A stretch of 64,000 nt of DNA from an uncultured virus (IMG/VR IMGVR_UViG_2061766007_000502) (taxonomy: Duplodnaviria > Heunggongvirae > Uroviricota > Caudoviricetes): the IMG/VR virus record IMGVR_UViG_2061766007_000502. The stretch is one strand, 5' to 3'. The position numbers and the translations under genes are program-made. A model generated the notes under the pieces. It did not search any database. It had not been told where the DNA came from and saw nothing but the letters and a program-made list of their open reading frames with translations. Positions 15,253-27,154 of the stretch are shown here, in pieces. Each line of letters starts with the position of its first letter. Within the stretch, counting starts at the first letter, position 1.

Positions 15253-18200
15253 ATGGGTTTAATTTATACTAATCCACAAAAATTCAATTCAGGTATTCAT
15301 TTAAATGGTGCTACACCTTTGGATGACAGACTCCAGATAAATGACATTTCAGATATTTACATCAGCAATACTACAACCGGAACTGCCGGTTGTGCTATTT
15401 ACGGTATGGCTTATGATGGTATGGTTATATCTGTGGTTGATCCGAATCACGATCACTCTAAAGATGTAATTCTCATACAGTTGAAAGATGCGACTCCGTA
15501 CAAATACGGTTCTCCTGGTGAAGTTAATGAAAATAACTACACTGAGTACTGGACTGTATCTATTAGCGGTGATGTGTCATTCGACACAAGCGTGATTGAT
15601 GCAAGCATCCATAATATTCAGACTGAAATTGCTTAGATTAAACAAAAGAACATCAGTCAGGATTCAAGTCTGAATACATTTGACTCAAGTATTCGTGACT
15701 TATATAACAAACCAGAAATACAAGCATCCCCTGTATATTAGAAAGATGGACAGAGTGGCTATGTTCTCGGTGATATAAATGATGCTCCGGGGGAAAATGC
15801 TTTTGCAGAAGGTTATGGAACAAATGCATCCGGTTTTTATTCTCATGCTGAGGGAGAAGATACAACTGCATCCGGTGACTATTCTCATGCTGAAGGTTAT
15901 AGTACAAATACATCTGGTAATTACGGTTCTCATGCAGAAGGTTAGAGTACAATTGCATCCGGCAACAGTGCTCATGCTGAAGGTCATAATACAATTGCAT
16001 CCGGCAACAGTGCTCATGCTGAAGGTGGTTCGGAATAGACAATGATTTTAGTTAAAAAAAATTACATTGCTGGTGATAATGAGATTTTTGTAGAAAGTGA
16101 TGTTCCAAAAAAAGCATTATTAACATATAATAATGAATATGCTGTTGTAGAATATAGTGGATATGATTCAGAACAACAAGCATATCTATTAGATTTACAA
16201 ACATCATTTTCATTTGATATTAATGCTAATATGCGAATAGCAATGTATAAAACTGCAAGTGGTTAGTATTCTCATATAGAAGGTTATAATACACATGCAT
16301 CCGGTGATTAGTCTCATGCTGAAGGTGACGGTACAACTGCATCTGGTGAATCATCTCATGCAGAAGGTTAGAGTACAATTGCATCTGGTGAGTCATCTCA
16401 TACAGAAGGTTAGAGTACAATTGCATCTGGTAACTGTTCTCATACAGAAGGTATTGATACTATTGCATATGGTATAGCATCTCATGTTGAAGGAGAAATG
16501 ATAGCAGCAGCTGGTAGGGGTTCTCATGCTGAAGGGGGTCAATCTTATTCATCTGATAGTAAATTCACTCTTACAAAAGATTATCAAGGTAGTAATAGCA
16601 TTTATGTTGAATATAATAGTATTTTTGGAGAAACTACTGAAGGTGATCTAAAATTGCTGTTAAAATATAATAATGAATATGTTCTTACAACAAGTTATTA
16701 TTATGATGAAGATGAACAATCATATGTATTAATCATGGATGGTTATTTATCTTCTGAAAATGAAATTCCTACTGGTACAGAAATTAATTATATTGAAAGT
16801 GGTGCTTTTGGTGATTATTCTCATTCAGAAGGTTATAGTAATGCATCTGGTGAATATTCTCATGCAGAAGGATATTGGACAATTGCATCTGGTGAACGAT
16901 CTCATGCTGAAGGTAGCAGTACAACTGCATCTGGTAATTACGGTTCTCATGCAGAAGGTGATCAAACAATTGCATCTGGTGAATCATCTCATGCTGAAGG
17001 TTTAAATAGTACAGCATCTGGTTAGGCAGCTCATGCAGAAGGATTTGATACAAAAGCAACTGGTGAAATGTCTCATGCTGAAGGTTTAAATAATACAGCA
17101 TCTGGTTAGGCAACTCATGCAGAAGGCTATGGTTCTATTGCAGTTGGTGACTATTCTCATACAGAAGGTAAAGCATTAGCAGTTGGTGAATATTCTCATG
17201 CAGAAGGAATATGTGACTCACATGATGAATTGATTTTAACACAAGCATATAGACAAGGTGCTACAACTTTATATGTTGATAGAAATGATGTTTCTATTGG
17301 TACACCTATTAATTATGATAATGAATATCGAGTAGTTGAAGAGTCTGGTGAAGGTTATATAGAATTAAATGAAGGTTTTTCTTTTGATATACAAATCAGA
17401 GGAAAAGTTTATATATATGGTGGTGCAGGTGGCAAGTATTCACATTCTGAGGGAGAAAATTGTACTGCTGCCGGTGATTATTCTCATGCTGAAGGAACCA
17501 GTGTGACTGCTTTAGGATATGCTGCTCATGCAGAGGGTGGTGCTACAACTGCATTTGGTGATTAGTCTCATGCAGAAGGTGAAAGCACAACTGCATCTGG
17601 CACCAGTGCTCATGCAGAAGGTGGCAATACAACTGCATCTGGAGAATCATCTCATGCAGAAGGTGGCAGTACAACTGCATCTGGAGAATCATCTCATGCT
17701 GAAGGTGAAAGTACAACTGCATCTGGTGAAGCATCTCATGCAGAAGGTTATGATACATCTGCAATGAGTAATTATTCTCATGCTGAAGGATATAGCACAC
17801 AAACTACTAATGAAGCAGAACATGCATCTGGTAAGTACAACAAATCAACATCAGGAAAGACTCGGTTCTCAGTTGGCATCGGCACAGCAACCAACAAGAG
17901 AAAGAATGCATTTGAGATTACTATTGATGGTAGTGTATATATTAATGATATCGGCGGATATAACGGAACAAATGTCACATCAGCAAAGAATATTCAAAAT
18001 GTAGTAAAGACTATCAACTCTTCTGTCAATACACTTGATGCAAGTGTAAGAGATTTGTATATCAACGGCAGTAGTAGTGGCGGTTCCGGTAANNNNNNNN
18101 NNNNNNTAGAGTGGTTATGTTCTTGGTGATTCAAATGATGCTCCGGGAGAAAATGCTTTTGCATATGGTTATTATACAAATGCAGACGGTGACTATTCTC

Positions 18201-20749
18201 ACGCTGAAGGTTAGTATACAACAGCATCTGGTGAAAATTCTCATGCAGAAGGCTATGAAACTCGTACAGGTGGTGACTATTCTCATGCAGATGGTTATTA
18301 TACATATACTAGCAATGTTGGAGAACACGCATGTGGTAAATGTAATTATTCAACAAGCGGAAAAACTCAATTTTCTGTTGGTATCGGCACAGATCAATTT
18401 TATGACCGCAAAAATGCATTGGAGATTACTGATGATGGTAAAGTGTTCATCTATGATATTGGTAATTATAACGGAAGAAATATCGATGATGCATCTTCTT
18501 TACAAGATATTATTTCCGGTGGCGGTAGTAGTTCCGGTGGCGACGGTTATATATCATACACAGAGTATAAAGGATATATTCTCGGTGATAGTGGTAACAC
18601 AGCAGAAGGATAGGATTCTTTTGCTGAAGGAAATCAAACATCAGCAGGAGGTGACTATTCTCATGCAGAAGGATAGTCTACAATAGCATCCAGTTACTAT
18701 TCTCATGCAGAAGGATATTCCACAATTGCTAATAGTACCAGCGCTCATGCCGAAGGATATTCTACAATAGCAGGAGGTGACTATTCTCATGCCGAAGGTA
18801 TTAACTCATCAACAAGTGCTGATAGTGCTCATGCAGAGGGATATTATACATCTGCGTTTGGCAACTATTCTCACACAGAAGGATATTATACAACTGCATC
18901 TGATGAAGCAGCTCATGCAGAAGGTGATTATACAACAGCATCTGGTTATGCATCTCATGCAGAGGGTTAGTATACAAATGCAACTGGCGAGTCATCTCAT
19001 TCTGAAGGTTTGAATACAAATGCATCAGGTGCATATTCTCATGCAGAAGGTGAATATACTCAAACAACTAATGAAGCAGAACATGCATCAGGAATGTATA
19101 ATAATTCAACAGAAGACTTGACACAATTCTCAGTTGGTATCGGTACTGATGACGATGACCGCAAAAATGCATTTGAGATTACCAATGATGGTAAAGTATT
19201 CATCTATGATATTGGTAATTATGACGGTACTAATGTCGATGATGCATCTTCTTTACAAGATATTATTTCCGGCAGTGGCAGTGGCAGTGGTGATGGTGGT
19301 TATATAATATATAATGAAGATGAAGGATATGCTATTGGTGGTAATACTGCAACAGGAGAAGATTCATTTGCAGTAGGTTATAATACAACAGCATCCGGTC
19401 GAAATTCTCATGCTGAGGGTGCTATAACAACAGCATCTGGTGTTTATTCTCATGCTGAGGGTTATTAGACAACAGCATCTGGTGAATAGTCTCATGCTGA
19501 GGGTTCGGTAACAAATGCAACTGGTCAATCATCTCATACTGAAGGCACCAATACAACTGCATCAAAATGGTGTGCTCATGCTGAGGGTTATTAGACAACA
19601 GCATCTGGTGAATATTCTCATGCTGAAGGATAGAATACAATTACAACAGGTTATGTTACTCATGCAGAAGGTATAGATACATCAGCATTAGGACAATATT
19701 CTCATGCTGAAGGCAAGAGCACAATAGCAAATTTAAATAGTCATGCAGAAGGTTATCAGACTCAAGCAATGAATTATTCTCATGCAGAAGGTTATTAGAC
19801 ATTTGCATTCACAAAATCACATTCTGAAGGACAAAATACTTTTGCTATAAAAACATCACATGCAGAAGGAAATGGTACTGTTGCTTTATATAATCAATCA
19901 CATGCAGAGGGATATGGTAAGTTTTCAGGAACAAATGTAATTGAAATTACAAATGTTTCCGGAGAATATGAAGAACAAAAAACCATTACAACTGACACTG
20001 CTCTTAAAGTAGGAGATTTGATAATACAATATATAGATCCTCAAAATCAAGAATATAATTATAATCATTCAATACAATAGTATGATTTTGATGAAGGATG
20101 TTATGAAGTTGAAGAATTGCTAAATCAATCTGGTACAATTGTAAAACTTTCGGGTTTGTCAAAATATACTTCGATAAAAATAGGAAAATGTTATAAATTT
20201 ACACCTTCAGATGGCGGTGCTTTTGCAAATAATGCACATTCAGAAGGTTACCAAACTGTTGCAAATGGTTATGCATCTCATTCTGAAGGTGAGTATTCAA
20301 CTGCATCCGGTCAAAATTCTCATGCAGAAGGACATACTACAACTGCATCTGGAAGTTATGCTCATTCCGAAGGTGAGGTTACAACTGCATCTGGTAATTA
20401 CAGTTCTCATGCAGAAGGTCATCGGACAACTGCAGATGGTGAGTATGGTGCTCATGCAGAAGGATATTATACAACTGCATCTGGTGAATCTTCACATGCA
20501 GAAGGTAAAAATACTCAAACAACTAATGAAGCAGAACATGCATGTGGTAAATACAATTTATCTACTTTAAATCAAACATTATTTTCAATAGGTAACGGTA
20601 CATCTCCAACAACACGAAAGAATACTATTGAGGTTGATAAGAACGGAAATGTATATATTCAAGGTATAGGTGGTTATAATGGTAAAAATGCAACAGACAG
20701 TAGTAGTCTATAGGAAATAATTGACTTTTTAATGAGTCAGCATAGCTAA
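15253..20749 (+). CDS. Long SHAEG-repeat fibre/adhesin (YadA-head/Hep_Hag-like beta-roll), many in-frame TAGs
   Basis: Dozens of 14-aa (T)TASGxxSHAEG repeats in blocks capped by FSVGIG...RKNAFEIT..G.V.I modules. Continuous with TAG=Q except for a one-base frame offset across the N run at 18093-18106. Confidence 0.8.
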
Positions 20750-22326: not shown

Positions 22327-23382
22327 ATGATAACACATCATTATATACATACTGGCAACTCAATGGATATGGATCATATTCAGAGCAACTCTGTTTAGTT
22401 GGTTGTGACATCTCCGCCCTATCCTATGGTTCAGATGTGGGATGACATTTTTGCATCTCAAAATCCACTGATAGCAGATTTCCTGAGTGATGGAGAATCA
22501 GCAATCATATTCCAGATGATGCATCAGATGCTCGATGATGTGTGGAGAGAATGTTTTCGCGTTCTACAACCGGGCGGGTTTCTGTGCATCAACATAGGGG
22601 ATGCAACAAGAACAGTGAACGGAAAGTTCTCATTATTCACTAACCACACCAGAATCACGGCTGCCTGTATAAAGATGGGGTTCACATGTCTTCCTGAGAT
22701 ATTATGGAGAAAGCAGACAAATGCACCGAACAAGTTTATGGGAAGCGGTATGCTTCCTTGCGGCGCATACATCACTCTTGAACACGAACACATACTTATA
22801 TTCAGAAAGGGAGATAAGCGTGAATACAAAACCGATGACGAAAAACTGATTAGAGCAAAGAGTGCATACTTTTGGGAAAAAAGAAATATCTGGTTTTCCG
22901 ACCTTTGGGATGTCAAGGGGACAAAGTAGGATATAAGCACAGACACAAGAGACAGGAATGCAGCATATCCAGTTGAGATACCATATCGACTGATTCAGAT
23001 GTTCTCTCAGAAAGAGGATACAATATTAGACCCATTCTTGGGGACAGGCAGTACAACAGTTGCCGCTGTGATGACGGGCAGAAATTCCCACGGATATGAC
23101 ATTGATTCGGAATTCTGCAAACTCGCACATAACAGAGTTATGGAACTCGACTGTGATATTTGCAGACAAGTAGTCAATAAGCATCTGAACGACCACATCA
23201 ATTTCATCGAAGAAAGGGAAAAGTCGGGAAAAAAAGTAAAATACTATAACAAGAATCTTGATTGCAAGGTTATGACTAAACAGGAAACTGAGATTGAGTT
23301 AGATTATCCTGTATCAATAAAAACAATCAATGATGTAATAGAAGTTGAGCTTCATTTGTTAAAAAATACTAATTTATTCTGA
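22327..23382 (+). CDS. Beta-class N4-cytosine/N6-adenine DNA methyltransferase
   Basis: VTSPPY catalytic motif, then [12 protein letters not shown] motif; the two track ORFs join in frame via TAGs at 22396 and 22927. Confidence 0.88.
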
Positions 23383-23397
23383 TAAATTCAGAAAAAT

Positions 23398-23428
23398 TTT
23401 GCTATTTCAAAAGTAAATTGTAATTTTG
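23398..23428 (+). promoter_or_regulatory. Bacteroidota promoter for the leader/tRNA operon
   Basis: TTTG-N19-TAATTTTG. Confidence 0.75.
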
Positions 23429-23470
23429 CAGAAAAGTTTTAAGATAAATAAATCAAATATAGAATAAAAT

Positions 23471-23566
23471 ATGAGAATGTTCACACAACATCAGCATCAA
23501 CATCAGCATGTGGGCCAGCAGTTCACAGGCACAAGTTGTTGTGTAACATTCTTACAAGCGATATAA
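23471..23566 (+). CDS. Gln/His/Thr-rich leader peptide MRMFTQHQHQHQHVGQQFTGTSCCVTFLQAI
   Basis: 31-codon ORF after an A-rich initiation region; ACA CAA CAT CAG CAT CAA CAT CAG CAT run. Confidence 0.75.
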   Translation: MRMFTQHQHQHQHVGQQFTGTSCCVTFLQAI

Positions 23567-23670
23567 GCCTAAAAACTCATAATGAAGTTTTAATTGGTTT
23601 AAAGTTTAATTGTTTAATTAACTCGGCTGCAAGGATGTTCACAAAAAACGTGAAATCCTTGCAGTTTTTT
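23474..23670 (+). promoter_or_regulatory. Transcription attenuator (1:2, 2:3 antiterminator, 3:4 terminator)
   Basis: Segment 1 (23474-23490) pairs with segment 2 (23535-23559); segment 2 is also complementary to segment 3 (23626-23649); the 3:4 stem ends in TTTTTT 4 nt before the first tRNA. Confidence 0.75.
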
Positions 23671-23674
23671 ATTT

Positions 23675-23746
23675 TGGAGATTGGTATAATGGTTATTACA
23701 TCAGATTTTGGTCCTGATAATAGCAGTTCGAATCTGCTATCTCCAA
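23675..23746 (+). tRNA. tRNA-Gln(UUG)
   Basis: Cloverleaf; anticodon loop TT-TTG-GT; T-loop TTCGAAT. Confidence 0.9.
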
Positions 23747-23753
23747 CTAAAAT

Positions 23754-23828
23754 GGTGGTTGTAGTTCAGTTGGTTAGAATACCAGATTGTGGCTCTGGTG
23801 GTCATGGGTTCGAATCCCATCAATCACC
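23754..23828 (+). tRNA. tRNA-His(GUG)
   Basis: Cloverleaf with G-1 and C73; CCAGA-TTGTGGC-TCTGG. Confidence 0.93.
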
Positions 23829-23836
23829 CTAAAAAT

Positions 23837-23908
23837 GCTTCAGTAGCACAGTGGTAGTGCAGCTCACTTGTAATGAGCAGGTCGTTGGTTCGAATCCTAC
23901 CTGAAGCT
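23837..23908 (+). tRNA. tRNA-Thr(UGU)
   Basis: Cloverleaf; GCTCA-CTTGTAA-TGAGC. Confidence 0.93.
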
Positions 23909-23915
23909 CATATAT

Positions 23916-23986
23916 TGGAGCATCGGATAATGGCAGTCCGTGAGATTCTGGTCCTCATAGTTTGGGTTCGATTCCCAATGCTCCTA
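23916..23986 (+). tRNA. tRNA-Gln(CUG)
   Basis: Cloverleaf; loop TT-CTG-GT; 1:72 mismatch. Confidence 0.85.
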
Positions 23987-23994
23987 CAATATTC

Positions 23995-24066
23995 TGGAGA
24001 TTCGTATAGCGGTTATTACATATGACTCTGGATCATAGAAGGGCGGTTCGAATCCGTCATCTCCAA
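23995..24066 (+). tRNA. tRNA-Gln(CUG)
   Basis: Cloverleaf; TATGA-CTCTGGA-TCATA. Confidence 0.9.
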
Positions 24067-24074
24067 CATATTAC

Positions 24075-24266
24075 AAATCTCACTGAAACTATATAGCACA
24101 ATGCTAATACAGTTTCAGTGAGATTCTTGATTATACAGAGATAGCACTGGACATATCACACAGTTCCTATCATAGCAGACGAAAGATAGAGTTAAAGAAG
24201 ATAGTATATTACTCCGTTTGATAGTGCTTTATTGTAACTGCCCAGTGCTATGACGCAATGAAATTA
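24075..24266 (-). ncRNA. Candidate rod-shaped small RNA convergent on the tRNA operon
   Basis: Reverse promoter at 24273-24303 (TTTG-N19-TATTTTTG); 12-bp closing stem 24142-24153/24239-24250 with inner helices; no ORF. Confidence 0.5.
24077..24125. terminator. Long hairpin closing the tRNA operon (possibly bidirectional)
   Basis: aatctcactgaaact / agtttcagtgagatt. Confidence 0.65.
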
Positions 24267-24481
24267 CATTTGCAAAAATACAAAATATTCATGAACTATC
24301 AAAACAAAATCATTCTTATTTTTTAGTTTTAACAATTTTTATACATTAAACCAAAAAGTTAGTTTGAAGAAATCAAATATAATTGTGTCTTTGATTTTGT
24401 AATATCCAACTGATGAACAATGCTTCAGCCACCCGATGCCGAAAAATCTATTATTATAATACCAAATATACTCTTTCATAA

Positions 24482-24811
24482 TTAACTCAGTAATTGTTGT
24501 ACTTTTTCTTGTTTGGGATCATTCCCACGAATGACTGAGTCAGCAAATTCGAGACCTTCAAGTTCAGCAAGAATCAGTTTAGCAGACGTATATACACCGA
24601 ATGTCCGCTGTATTTCACTGCATAATTCTTCAAGCAGATCATTACTATATATATTATATTGCTCGACTTCTCTATTCTCATAGCGCTCAATCAGACATCT
24701 GATAATAGTGTCCTTTTCATTACCTATATAAAGTAAATCAAATTTTATAGATTTGATACCAACGGCATCAATTATGTTATTGCCGATTTTGATATATTTC
24801 TTTTCCATCAA
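24482..24811 (-). CDS. Hypothetical protein
   Basis: 109-aa ORF. Confidence 0.55.
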   Translation of the reverse strand: MMEKKYIKIGNNIIDAVGIKSIKFDLLYIGNEKDTIIRCLIERYENREVEQYNIYSNDLLEELCSEIQRTFGVYTSAKLILAELEGLEFADSVIRGNDPKQEKVQQLLS

Positions 24812-25412: not shown

Positions 25413-25576
25413 TTTGTTATTTCAGATGTAATGTTTATCTTTGCATTGATATATTTCTTAGTTATGTGAAAATGTTGATAATGTTTTGAGGTTCAATAGT
25501 CAACTTGTGAAAGTCATGAACTATTTTTCCATAAGCTTTTGGTCCGAGTCGCTTGAGATGAGCGGTTCGGATTTTT
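25413..25576 (+). ncRNA. Promoter + sRNA unit A
   Basis: TTTG-N19-TATCTTTG; actt-GTGA-aagt hairpin; terminator tccgagtcgctt-gagat-gagcggttcgga + T run. Confidence 0.65.
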
Positions 25577-25655
25577 ATTATCATAATCCAACATTAAGTG
25601 TAATTTTCACAAAAATTAAAAGTTCTTAAAAAATTTAAGATTTTTGAATTTTTAT

Positions 25656-25882
25656 TTTGAAAGTAAAAAATATTATTGTATCTTTGCATTATGAAAATTA
25701 TACTCTAAAATGTTTTAGTAAGATTATATCAGCTTTTTGTTCAAATAATTTCATTGAAAGTGGTGTTAATAGTTCAACATGAACAACTTGTGATAAGTTT
25801 TTTTGAACTATTGTTTCTCCATAAAATGTTAAACATTAAGGTTTGCACATCCGGGTTGCTTGAGAAAGTCACTCGGATTTTT
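25656..25882 (+). ncRNA. Promoter + sRNA unit B
   Basis: TTTG-N19-TATCTTTG; aatagttca...tgaactatt hairpin; terminator tccgggttgctt-GAGA-aagtcactcgga + T run. Confidence 0.65.
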
Positions 25883-25961
25883 ATGTTAATGAATATCAAA
25901 CAGCCAATGTTATCAGAAGCTTTAAAAATAATTAATATGTTTAAGATTTTCTTATATTTCT

Positions 25962-26139
25962 TTTGTTGTTTGAAAGAAATAATATATCTTTGCACTAAGT
26001 TCATATATCATGCTAATAATTGTATTTTTCAATTAATGTTATGATTGCTTGTGAAAGTAGAAATAACATATACATTTTTTGACATATTAATTTAATTTAT
26101 CAGATAAACCGGTCAGCTTGTGATAAGCCAGCCGGTTTT
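25962..26139 (+). ncRNA. Promoter + sRNA unit C
   Basis: TTTG-N19-TATCTTTG; gctt-GTGA-aagt; terminator accggtcagctt-gtgat-aagccagccggt + T run. Confidence 0.65.
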
Positions 26140-26181
26140 ATTTAAAAAAACTTAAAACATTTGATATTTTCATGAATATAT

Positions 26182-26321
26182 TTTGTATAATCAAGAATAA
26201 TGACTATATTTGCATCGCAATAATTTACGACCTCTTATAAGTTTTTTTCATCTAAATCGTCATATATAAGAAAACAACATGTAATTATTCCGGATTGCTT
26301 GAGAAAGTCATCCGGTTTTTT
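26182..26321 (+). ncRNA. Promoter + sRNA unit D
   Basis: TTTG-N19-TATATTTG; terminator ccggattgctt-GAGA-aagtcatccgg + T run. Confidence 0.65.
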
Positions 26322-26379
26322 ATTTGTAAATACTATTTCTTAAAAATCATTAACAACTATAAGAATATTGCTGTATTAT

Positions 26380-26572
26380 TTTGCAGTTTCGAGTTTTGTT
26401 ATTATTTTTGCATTTAATTAAAGAAGATGATTCTTCGTTCAATATCTAAACAAGAAAATTCTATCATCAAAATTTGCTAAGTTCTATATTGTCGGGTAAT
26501 CAAAACCCGTTGTGCAACATTATTTTAAGTGTTTAATTGTGACCGGATTGCTTGAGAAAGTAATCCGGTTTT
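26380..26572 (+). ncRNA. Promoter + sRNA unit E
   Basis: TTTG-N19-TATTTTTG; terminator accggattgctt-GAGA-aagtaatccggt + T run. Confidence 0.65.
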
Positions 26573-26689
26573 ATTGTATTGGAATTATCCTATACAACTA
26601 TAGGGTTTTTCCCCTTCAGATATATGGAATTTCTGTCCGAAAAATACTGTCATTCGCGTCTAAATATTAAAACAATTAATTTAATAATT

Positions 26690-27154
26690 ATGAAACACAA
26701 AATAACAACTATCATCATTCTCTTAGCAACTATGTTGCTTACTTCATGTGCATCTTATGCACAAGTTTCTGTCAGTGCTGCAATTGACACCGGATTCGGA
26801 CTGATAACCTATCAGAACACATACATGAATTATCCGGTAGTCTATATGCAGGGTGTGCCATACTGCAGATATTACTATGATAATACTTGGCAGTACAGAA
26901 TCATCCCGGTTGAACACAGACATCACATAGTTCATCTTGACAGACCAATGGAGTTCAGGAGAATACCGGTTGCCCGTCATCCACATCATTTGCCACGCCC
27001 ACATCATATGCATGCAGTACCTCCACCACCAGTACATCACGGGCGTCCTGCACATATGCACGGTCATTCATCAACCAGACATTTTGCAGACAAGCATCAT
27101 CACGGCAGTAATGCCCCAAAACACGGCGGCAAGGGTCATGACAGACGCAGATGA
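26690..27154 (+). CDS. Predicted lipoprotein with His/Pro-rich C-terminal tail
   Basis: Signal peptide MKHKITTIIILLATMLLTSC (lipobox); tail RHPHHLPRPHHMHAVPPPPVHH. Confidence 0.7.
   Translation: MKHKITTIIILLATMLLTSCASYAQVSVSAAIDTGFGLITYQNTYMNYPVVYMQGVPYCRYYYDNTWQYRIIPVEHRHHIVHLDRPMEFRRIPVARHPHHLPRPHHMHAVPPPPVHHGRPAHMHGHSSTRHFADKHHHGSNAPKHGGKGHDRRR

Follow-up and report, generated by a model that had tools for sequence, protein, structure and literature searches.

A candidate leader-peptide attenuator upstream of five tRNA genes in a putative Lak-like megaphage

The stretch of DNA analysed here, 64,000 nucleotides (nt) from the IMG/VR virus record IMGVR_UViG_2061766007_000502 (referred to below as the window), carries on its + strand a promoter, a short open reading frame (ORF), a terminator hairpin and an array of five tRNA genes, in this order. 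The reading that we favour, with moderate confidence, is that the ORF encodes the leader peptide of a ribosome-mediated transcription attenuator and that this attenuator gates the tRNA genes, which would form an operon of a Lak-like, TAG-recoded megaphage. This is a single-lineage, in-silico case, in which the codons of the leader match the anticodons of the downstream tRNAs and the RNA preceding the tRNAs has alternative pairings; both features are real and far from chance. An earlier interpretation made from the bare sequence (the sequence-only reading) had proposed such an attenuator, and the promoter, the 31-amino-acid (aa) ORF, the terminator and the five tRNA genes (the latter identified with ARAGORN and Rfam) lie where it had placed them. 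The elements that concern the codon match are as follows:

23398–23428, + strand: Bacteroidetes-type promoter found by pattern scan, with a −33 box TTTG (23398–23401), 19 nt, and a −7 box TAATTTTG (23421–23428)
23471–23566, + strand: leader ORF of 31 codons plus stop, preceded by an A-rich region and containing another in-frame ATG at 23477
23483–23509, + strand: candidate regulatory run, in which a Thr codon and then four Gln-His pairs make up 9 cognate codons in a row, found by cognate-run scan
23675–24067, + strand: array of five tRNA genes separated by spacers of 6–7 nt (ARAGORN; Rfam RF00005)
23675–23747, + strand: tRNA Gln-UUG (ARAGORN)
23755–23829, + strand: tRNA His-GUG (ARAGORN)
23837–23909, + strand: tRNA Thr-UGU (ARAGORN)
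23916–23987, + strand: first tRNA Gln-CUG (ARAGORN)
23995–24067, + strand: second tRNA Gln-CUG (ARAGORN)

The predicted leader peptide is MRMFTQHQHQHQHVGQQFTGTSCCVTFLQAI. A codon count bore out the claim that its 7 Gln codons (3 CAA and 4 CAG), 4 His codons (all CAT) and 4 Thr codons (all ACA) are read by the downstream tRNAs, whose scores against the Rfam tRNA model range from 46.8 to 70.7 bits. With cognate codons defined as CAA, CAG, CAT, CAC and ACA, 15 of the 31 leader codons belong to this set. This fraction (0.48) ranks first among the ORFs of 20–60 aa in the six frames of the window, whether only the 464 ATG-started ORFs are considered or all 722 that start with ATG, GTG or TTG; the mean over such short ORFs is 0.10 (standard deviation 0.07). 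In long genes, cognate codons account for 8.0% of the total (16 long ORFs, 13,777 codons, TAG counted as Gln), and the binomial probability of finding at least 15 of them among 31 codons at a rate of 0.080 is 3e-9. The choice of Thr codons points the same way, as all four are ACA, which pairs directly with the UGU anticodon and makes up 44% of Thr codons (P = 0.037). The cognate codons are also clustered: nine of the 15 form the run starting at 23483, the other six being outside it, and the six frames of the 64 kilobases (kb) contain no second run of at least six cognate codons. Thus, as in known attenuators, a promoter is followed by a short ORF with its own start and stop codons, in which the putative regulatory codons are enriched, clustered and matched to the genes that would be controlled.

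As a control, we searched upstream of 108 tRNA blocks from six other phages, namely the IMG/VR relatives G001, G003 and G005 as well as Lak-B4, Lak-A2 and crAss001. Block by block, the longest cognate run over all frames of the preceding 450 nt comprises 0–4 codons, versus 9 here, and the best upstream ORF of at least 20 aa has a cognate fraction of at most 0.35, versus 0.48 here. Moreover, none of the 122 fetched IMG/VR loci with a (CAR CAY)x4 pattern has a tRNA within 700 nt; this pattern, which occurs about 2800 times in IMG/VR, is too common as a search probe.

The second line of evidence comes from RNA folding. The segments involved, numbered as in classical attenuators, are the following:

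23472–23490, + strand: segment 1, the anti-antiterminator partner, which overlaps codons 1–7 and pairs with 23537–23554 in minimum-energy folds
23507–23527, + strand: small inner hairpin (23507–23513 with 23521–23527) that holds the second of three GTTCACA copies, seen in the folds
23537–23554, + strand: segment 2, the shared partner of segment 1 or of the terminator 5' arm, seen in the folds
23625–23642, + strand: segment 3, the terminator 5' arm (direct repeat D2, inverted repeat I3)
23650–23675, + strand: segment 4, the terminator 3' arm (23650–23666) and the U-tract TTTTTTATTTT (23665–23675), from sequence and folding

The minimum-energy fold of 23435–23680 (−64.9 kcal/mol, z = −5.72, equalled by none of 200 shuffles) contains both the 1:2 pairing (23472–23490 with 23537–23554) and the terminator (23625–23642 with 23650–23666). 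The terminator hairpin (23625–23666) has an energy of −22.8 kcal/mol and a perfect core of 10 base pairs (bp); it contains a bulge, its inner stem is weak, and a simple terminator scan did not list it. The sequence-only reading had correctly recognized a U-tailed hairpin in front of the first tRNA gene, but the 4-nt gap that it had placed between the two does not exist, the last T of the U-tract being base 1 of the first tRNA. Segment 3 nearly repeats segment 1, with 13 of 15 positions identical, and segment 2 thus finds a complement in the terminator 5' arm as well. Accordingly, when the nascent RNA is folded up to 23650 only, the minimum-energy structure pairs 23534–23557 with 23627–23650 (2:3). 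Both duplexes had been predicted from the bare sequence, and both are stronger than expected from dinucleotide composition: among 2000 dinucleotide shuffles, the energy of the 1:2 duplex (−22.3 kcal/mol, versus −12.4 ± 2.9 in the shuffles) is reached 8 times, and that of the 2:3 duplex (−17.2 kcal/mol, versus −10.6 ± 2.2) 24 times, which means that they beat 99.6% and 98.8% of the shuffles, respectively. According to the folds, the 1:2 pairing, the 2:3 pairing and the terminator are mutually exclusive. Altogether, an intrinsic terminator lies between the leader ORF and the tRNA genes, and the RNA offers in silico an antiterminator that uses the terminator 5' arm as well as an anti-antiterminator that a stalled ribosome would disrupt.

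To see how a ribosome would bear on these pairings, we folded the nascent RNA ending at 23650 with the ribosome footprint (from −15 to +10 relative to the A site) masked at one codon after the other. With the A site stalled at any of codons 1–12, the probability of 2:3 is 0.72–0.84 and that of 1:2 about zero; with the ribosome on codons 23–32, the stop codon included, the probability of 2:3 drops to 0.00–0.02. In this model, the arrangement therefore fits the geometry of ribosome-mediated attenuation, as the sequence-only reading had held.

As to the promoter, the reading of a consensus promoter stands in part: a promoter is present, but it is of the Bacteroidetes type, and a sigma-70 scan found no sigma-70-like site on the + strand at 23398–23428. 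The site fits TTTG-N19-TAnnTTTG, which we take to be the Bacteroidetes promoter consensus. Its variant TTTG-N17-21-TAnnTTTG occurs 12 times in the window versus 2.16 expected, a number reached by none of 100 shuffles. What the sites of this family have in common, an extended −33 box (TTTGyTrTTTCAAA) and a CA following the −7 box, is also present at 23398–23428. Transcription would start near 23434. Since the pattern scan of the window found no promoter match between the terminator and the first tRNA, transcription of the array would depend on read-through.

The mechanism that we propose is the following. Host RNA polymerase would initiate at the Bacteroidetes-type promoter, and a ribosome would load on the 31-codon leader. 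When the Thr-ACA, Gln-CAA/CAG and His-CAU codons are decoded fast, the ribosome would proceed over segment 2 to the stop codon, thereby precluding the 2:3 pairing, so that the terminator would form and transcription would end at the U-tract before the first tRNA. A ribosome stalled within the Thr-(Gln-His)x4 run would instead cover segment 1 and leave segment 2 free to pair with the emerging terminator 5' arm; the terminator would not form and the polymerase would enter the tRNA genes. The new tRNAs would then relieve the stall, closing a negative feedback loop. As to what might set off the switch, starvation, anticodon nucleases and the Gln load imposed by TAG recoding are speculations.

Several observations weigh against this attenuator, and the first group concerns the folds. 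The 2:3 pairing is competitive, as the sequence-only reading required, but to the point that the ribosome-free nascent RNA to 23650 already prefers it over 1:2 (0.70 versus 0.17), so that the off state would depend on kinetics or on a ribosome covering segment 2. With the ribosome on codons 13–19, the 1:2 pairing closes around it in the mask model and the probability of 2:3 is 0.19–0.24, a closure that appears sterically doubtful. The claim that a stall frees segment 2 and blocks the terminator is backed by the nascent RNA at codons 1–12 but not by the full-length RNA, which at equilibrium forms the terminator under every mask; likewise, the fold of 23495–23680 keeps the terminator and lacks 2:3. 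Control would hence have to be kinetic. Kinetic control is assumed for the classical attenuators.

A second group of objections concerns the codons and the proposed output. Positions 23486–23509 consist of two identical 12-nt units in tandem (repeat family D4); eight of the nine codons in the run derive from this single duplication and are thus not independent events. Two of the cognate codons outside the run, codons 26 and 29, sit where a stall would favour termination. Besides, additional tRNA would be of no help under amino-acid starvation.

Third, the leader has no diverged counterpart in the collections that we searched, and there is consequently no covariation to support it. None of the 108 tRNA blocks of G001, G003, G005, Lak-B4, Lak-A2 and crAss001 has a sibling leader, so the expectation that related phages would carry codon-matched leaders failed and the element is not a family trait. 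A blastn search with 23380–24110 against 50,697 phage records matched the tRNA parts only and gave no leader homologue; in the best match, MT837178.1, as in the IMG/VR contig of L027, a plain promoter precedes a different, nine-tRNA array, without a leader. Neither a degenerate leader pattern nor a 31-mer of the tRNA-Gln had a match in IMG/VR; the leader pattern is absent from the genome contigs searched, the leader DNA from ten related IMG/VR records, and the leader peptide from the protein collection. Going through the adjoining methyltransferase gene, we found no relative in IMG/VR and, among metagenome contigs, three distant relatives (36–53% identical) without the leader–tRNA cassette. 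Note that Lak-B4 (L170:4526–4597) and Lak-A2 (L174, − strand) have a conserved 23-codon ORF 97–112 nt upstream of a tRNA-Gln-UUG gene, starting with MFADQMVLFLSS... and MFADRMVLILSS..., respectively; the ORF shows no enrichment in Gln, and the DNA of these two phages is in any case similar.

Finally, short promoter-to-terminator units are common in this phage. On the + strand at 25413–26575, five tandem units start with promoters of the same family (at 25413, 25656, 25962, 26182 and 26380, together spanning 25413–26410), continue for 110–200 nt without a long ORF, and end in near-identical terminators with no tRNA behind them. Each of these terminators consists of a hairpin followed by a T-run, with the tip CTTG(A/T)GA(A/T)AGT, a motif that occurs five times, all on the + strand, versus 0.26 expected; the tips are probably stems capped by a GAGA or GUGA tetraloop. 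The five units match no Rfam family and may be small RNAs or tiny-ORF units. By analogy, the promoter, ORF and terminator upstream of the tRNA genes could make up an independent short unit, that is, the gene of a small RNA of about 235 nt or of a micro-protein with its own terminator. In that case, the tRNAs would be transcribed through constitutive leakage or from an unrecognised phage-specific promoter, and the 12-nt duplication, from which the eight Gln-His codons of the run stem, would have produced the codon match incidentally; nor did the searches above yield a diverged copy of the leader in which the codons are conserved.

This alternative, like the attenuator itself, agrees with one of the contigs that we found in sequencing runs, that of the RNA run X18. 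Contigs from two DNA runs and one RNA run match the window over the parts of the leader that each spans, except for G23625A and G23626A (X8, 23357–23882; X14, 23485–23648; X18, 23454–23656). In the fold, the two positions face bases of the U-tract at the bottom of the terminator stem, so that pairing would be kept with A. The contig of X18, a metatranscriptome run, is 203 nt long, differs at one position and spans just 23454–23656; since RNA libraries may contain DNA and the runs are assemblies, it attests to presence only, not to ends, strand, level or regulation. The same run has no phage-like contig over 23300–23453 or past 23656, gaps in contig cover that prove nothing, and in another RNA run (X19) a 132-nt contig covers 23880–24011 and not the leader. 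One of the DNA contigs, 3422 nt long and from another cattle sample, aligns with the window from position 23357 on and not before it; the 526 nt in common contain 4 substitutions and 2 indels. A Logan contig, also of 3422 nt, carries a methyltransferase 80% identical to that of the window. The two may be the same contig; if so, a cassette about 99% identical adjoins a gene with 20% divergence, an arrangement that speaks for a recombination boundary where the methyltransferase gene ends and not for independent conservation.

Still, we consider the independent short unit unlikely, as it leaves three facts unexplained: (i) the only unit that abuts tRNA genes is the one with a 31-codon ORF, whose set of regulatory codons equals the set of anticodons in the array and which ranks first among 722 in cognate fraction, with a nine-codon run where the 108 control blocks have at most four; (ii) segment 2 is complementary both to the start of the ORF and to the terminator 5' arm, each to an extent that few shuffles reach; (iii) nothing between the terminator and the tRNAs matches the promoter pattern.

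Could AT-rich intergenic DNA simply contain the open frame, the hairpin and the terminator together by chance, none of them serving regulation? A 31-codon open frame is by itself not rare (about 0.13, as estimated from base composition), and a single sequence lineage is at hand, but the codon, duplex and control-block statistics jointly oppose this explanation, as do the z-score of the fold and the fact that the promoter ahead of the unit comes from a significantly enriched family, all of which make it improbable. Less probable still is an antitermination independent of translation, in which a protein or an RNA, for instance by binding the three GUUCACA copies, would select 2:3 versus 3:4 and the ORF would be incidental: the alternative pairings do exist irrespective of leader translation and GTTCACA is found three times in 165 nt on one strand (23479, 23521 and 23637) versus 14 times on both strands of the whole window, but these copies are accounted for by the pairings themselves, the leader has no Rfam match at E ≤ 1 (T-box included) and the codon match would be left unexplained.

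How does the proposed attenuator compare with known systems? The closest likeness is to the amino-acid operon attenuators of enterobacteria, among which those of his, thr and ilv are multivalent. In both, a short leader ORF with a regulatory run follows a promoter, the 1:2, 2:3 and 3:4 pairings are mutually exclusive, and a terminator precedes the controlled genes; as in the multivalent ones, more than one amino acid would be sensed (here Gln, His and Thr). They differ in output, which in enterobacteria consists of biosynthetic enzymes, whereas here it would be the very tRNAs that read the regulatory codons, so that the loop would close on decoding capacity. In addition, the stop codon here lies 9 nt after segment 2 and not before it, there is no similarity in sequence or to an Rfam model, and the phage is one of a Bacteroidota host. 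In control of the pheST/thrS type, attenuation at the pheM leader regulates genes for aminoacyl-tRNA synthetases. Such attenuation resembles the present candidate in that it responds to tRNA charging and regulates part of the translation machinery, but its output is a synthetase protein and not tRNA genes. We also considered leader-like control of the Escherichia coli tRNA-Phe genes, which was not borne out: about 105 nt separate pheV and pheU from the genes before them, and no leader is annotated there.

Within the host phylum, Bacteroid-trp RNA (Rfam RF01692), presumably a leader with Trp codons upstream of tryptophan genes, was found in the control genome of Bacteroides thetaiotaomicron. 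It is a candidate leader-type attenuator in Bacteroidales, and its presence there makes such control plausible in the phylum; it belongs, however, to another sequence and structure family, has no match in the region of interest and precedes tryptophan genes, not tRNAs. T-box riboswitches are likewise cis-acting leaders that read the state of a specific tRNA and switch between terminator and antiterminator, but they bind uncharged tRNA directly, without translation, and have conserved motifs, whereas the signal here would be a translated codon run. A cmscan of 22800–24800 at E ≤ 1 returned the tRNAs and three weak unrelated matches, with no leader family and no T-box; specifically, the covariance models of His_leader, Thr_leader, Leu_leader, Trp_leader, Bacteroid-trp and T-box had no match in this region.

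Phage-borne tRNAs are thought to replace depleted or cleaved host tRNAs, as a counter-defence or for codon supply (PMC10264068, PMC11555353, PMC11464382); in the parts of these papers available to us, the subject is which tRNAs phages carry, not a control of their transcription that senses demand. The words attenuat-, leader, terminator and promoter are all absent from PMC10264068, and the available parts of this paper and of PMC3082878 have no bearing on leader-peptide attenuation of tRNA genes. A full-text search, which did not cover subscription-only papers, found no published account of such attenuation, in line with the sequence-only reading, which knew of no attenuator whose output is the sensed tRNAs themselves. 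Our best reading is therefore that the element works like the multivalent enterobacterial attenuators, belongs to no described sequence family and has a kind of output that we did not find described.

The identity of the phage is suggested by its proteins and its use of TAG. The portal protein is 61% identical to those of the Prevotella phages Lak-A, Lak-B and Lak-C, and IMG/VR contigs, including one 673-kb genome, have portals up to 77% identical. Reading TAG as Gln merges many ORFs of the window, with 11 in-frame TAGs in 15253–18129, 12 in 18077–20749 and 2 in the methyltransferase gene. With both close similarity to Lak proteins and TAG as a sense codon, the phage is, judging by these sequences, a TAG-recoded relative of the Lak megaphages with Prevotella-type hosts. 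Genes for amber-suppressor tRNAs (CUA anticodon) occur in relatives, at L035:18490–18561 (IMG/VR relative G005) and, in Lak-B4 and Lak-A2, at L171:959 and at L178:156 and 1063, as expected given TAG recoding; the window has no CUA tRNA and carries two Gln-CUG genes, whose anticodon is one base change from CUA. The stretch is present in bovine gut metagenome runs (20 rows from 13 studies, 16 of the 20 with at least half of the words). Note that the window contains 1986 N bases, which cause runs of X in some translations; none of them lies within 23300–24200.

Two further elements flank the cassette:

22327–23382, + strand: DNA methyltransferase gene, just upstream of the promoter
24076–24125, strand not assigned: perfect 15-bp hairpin directly 3' of the last tRNA, from sequence

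The nearest relatives of the methyltransferase form a phage cluster at 79–80% identity (P0002, P0121, P0123 and P0124), and relatives about 61% identical are labelled Bacteroidaceae, Parabacteroides and Bacteroides. The hairpin at 24076–24125 is likely the end of the operon. The strain variants 24079 C>T, which gives a G-U pair, and 24126 C>T, which adds an A-U pair, keep or extend its stem. Termination there may be bidirectional, as about 150 nt away a promoter-like − strand site (24303–24273) is oriented towards the hairpin; a two-way terminator together with a short antisense-side transcript could thus be present at 24076–24125 and 24273–24303 (− strand). Elsewhere in the window, the + strand ORFs 15253–18129 (958 aa) and 18077–20749 (890 aa) encode two large proteins with dozens of short SHAEG-type repeats, which match PHROG 25468, a family of unknown function (E = 1e-88 and 3e-95, respectively). 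At 26579–27154 (+ strand), 2.6 kb downstream of the phage tRNA-His gene, lies a gene for a predicted lipoprotein-like protein whose signal ends in Cys and whose C-terminal half is very rich in His and Pro.

The regulation of phage tRNA genes is largely unknown, and it is debated whether these genes serve codon supply or escape from tRNA-targeting defences. Beyond the attenuator itself, we tentatively advance the idea, possible though held less firmly, that the phage operates a closed-loop tRNA homeostat: a test peptide would gauge the speed at which Gln, His and Thr codons are decoded, and replacement tRNAs would be made only when decoding is slow, for instance upon cleavage or depletion of host tRNAs. 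The window would then present one case of a wider class, as yet unpublished, of codon-matched attenuators gating phage tRNA genes. If this holds true, the phage monitors decoding capacity and responds on demand, a new use of a textbook switch, and the arrangement would be direct genetic evidence that phage tRNAs repair shortages. It would also provide a simple signature, a codon run matching downstream anticodons together with a switchable terminator, with which to find sensors in other viruses, as well as a small module with which genes in Bacteroidota could be placed under tRNA-responsive control.

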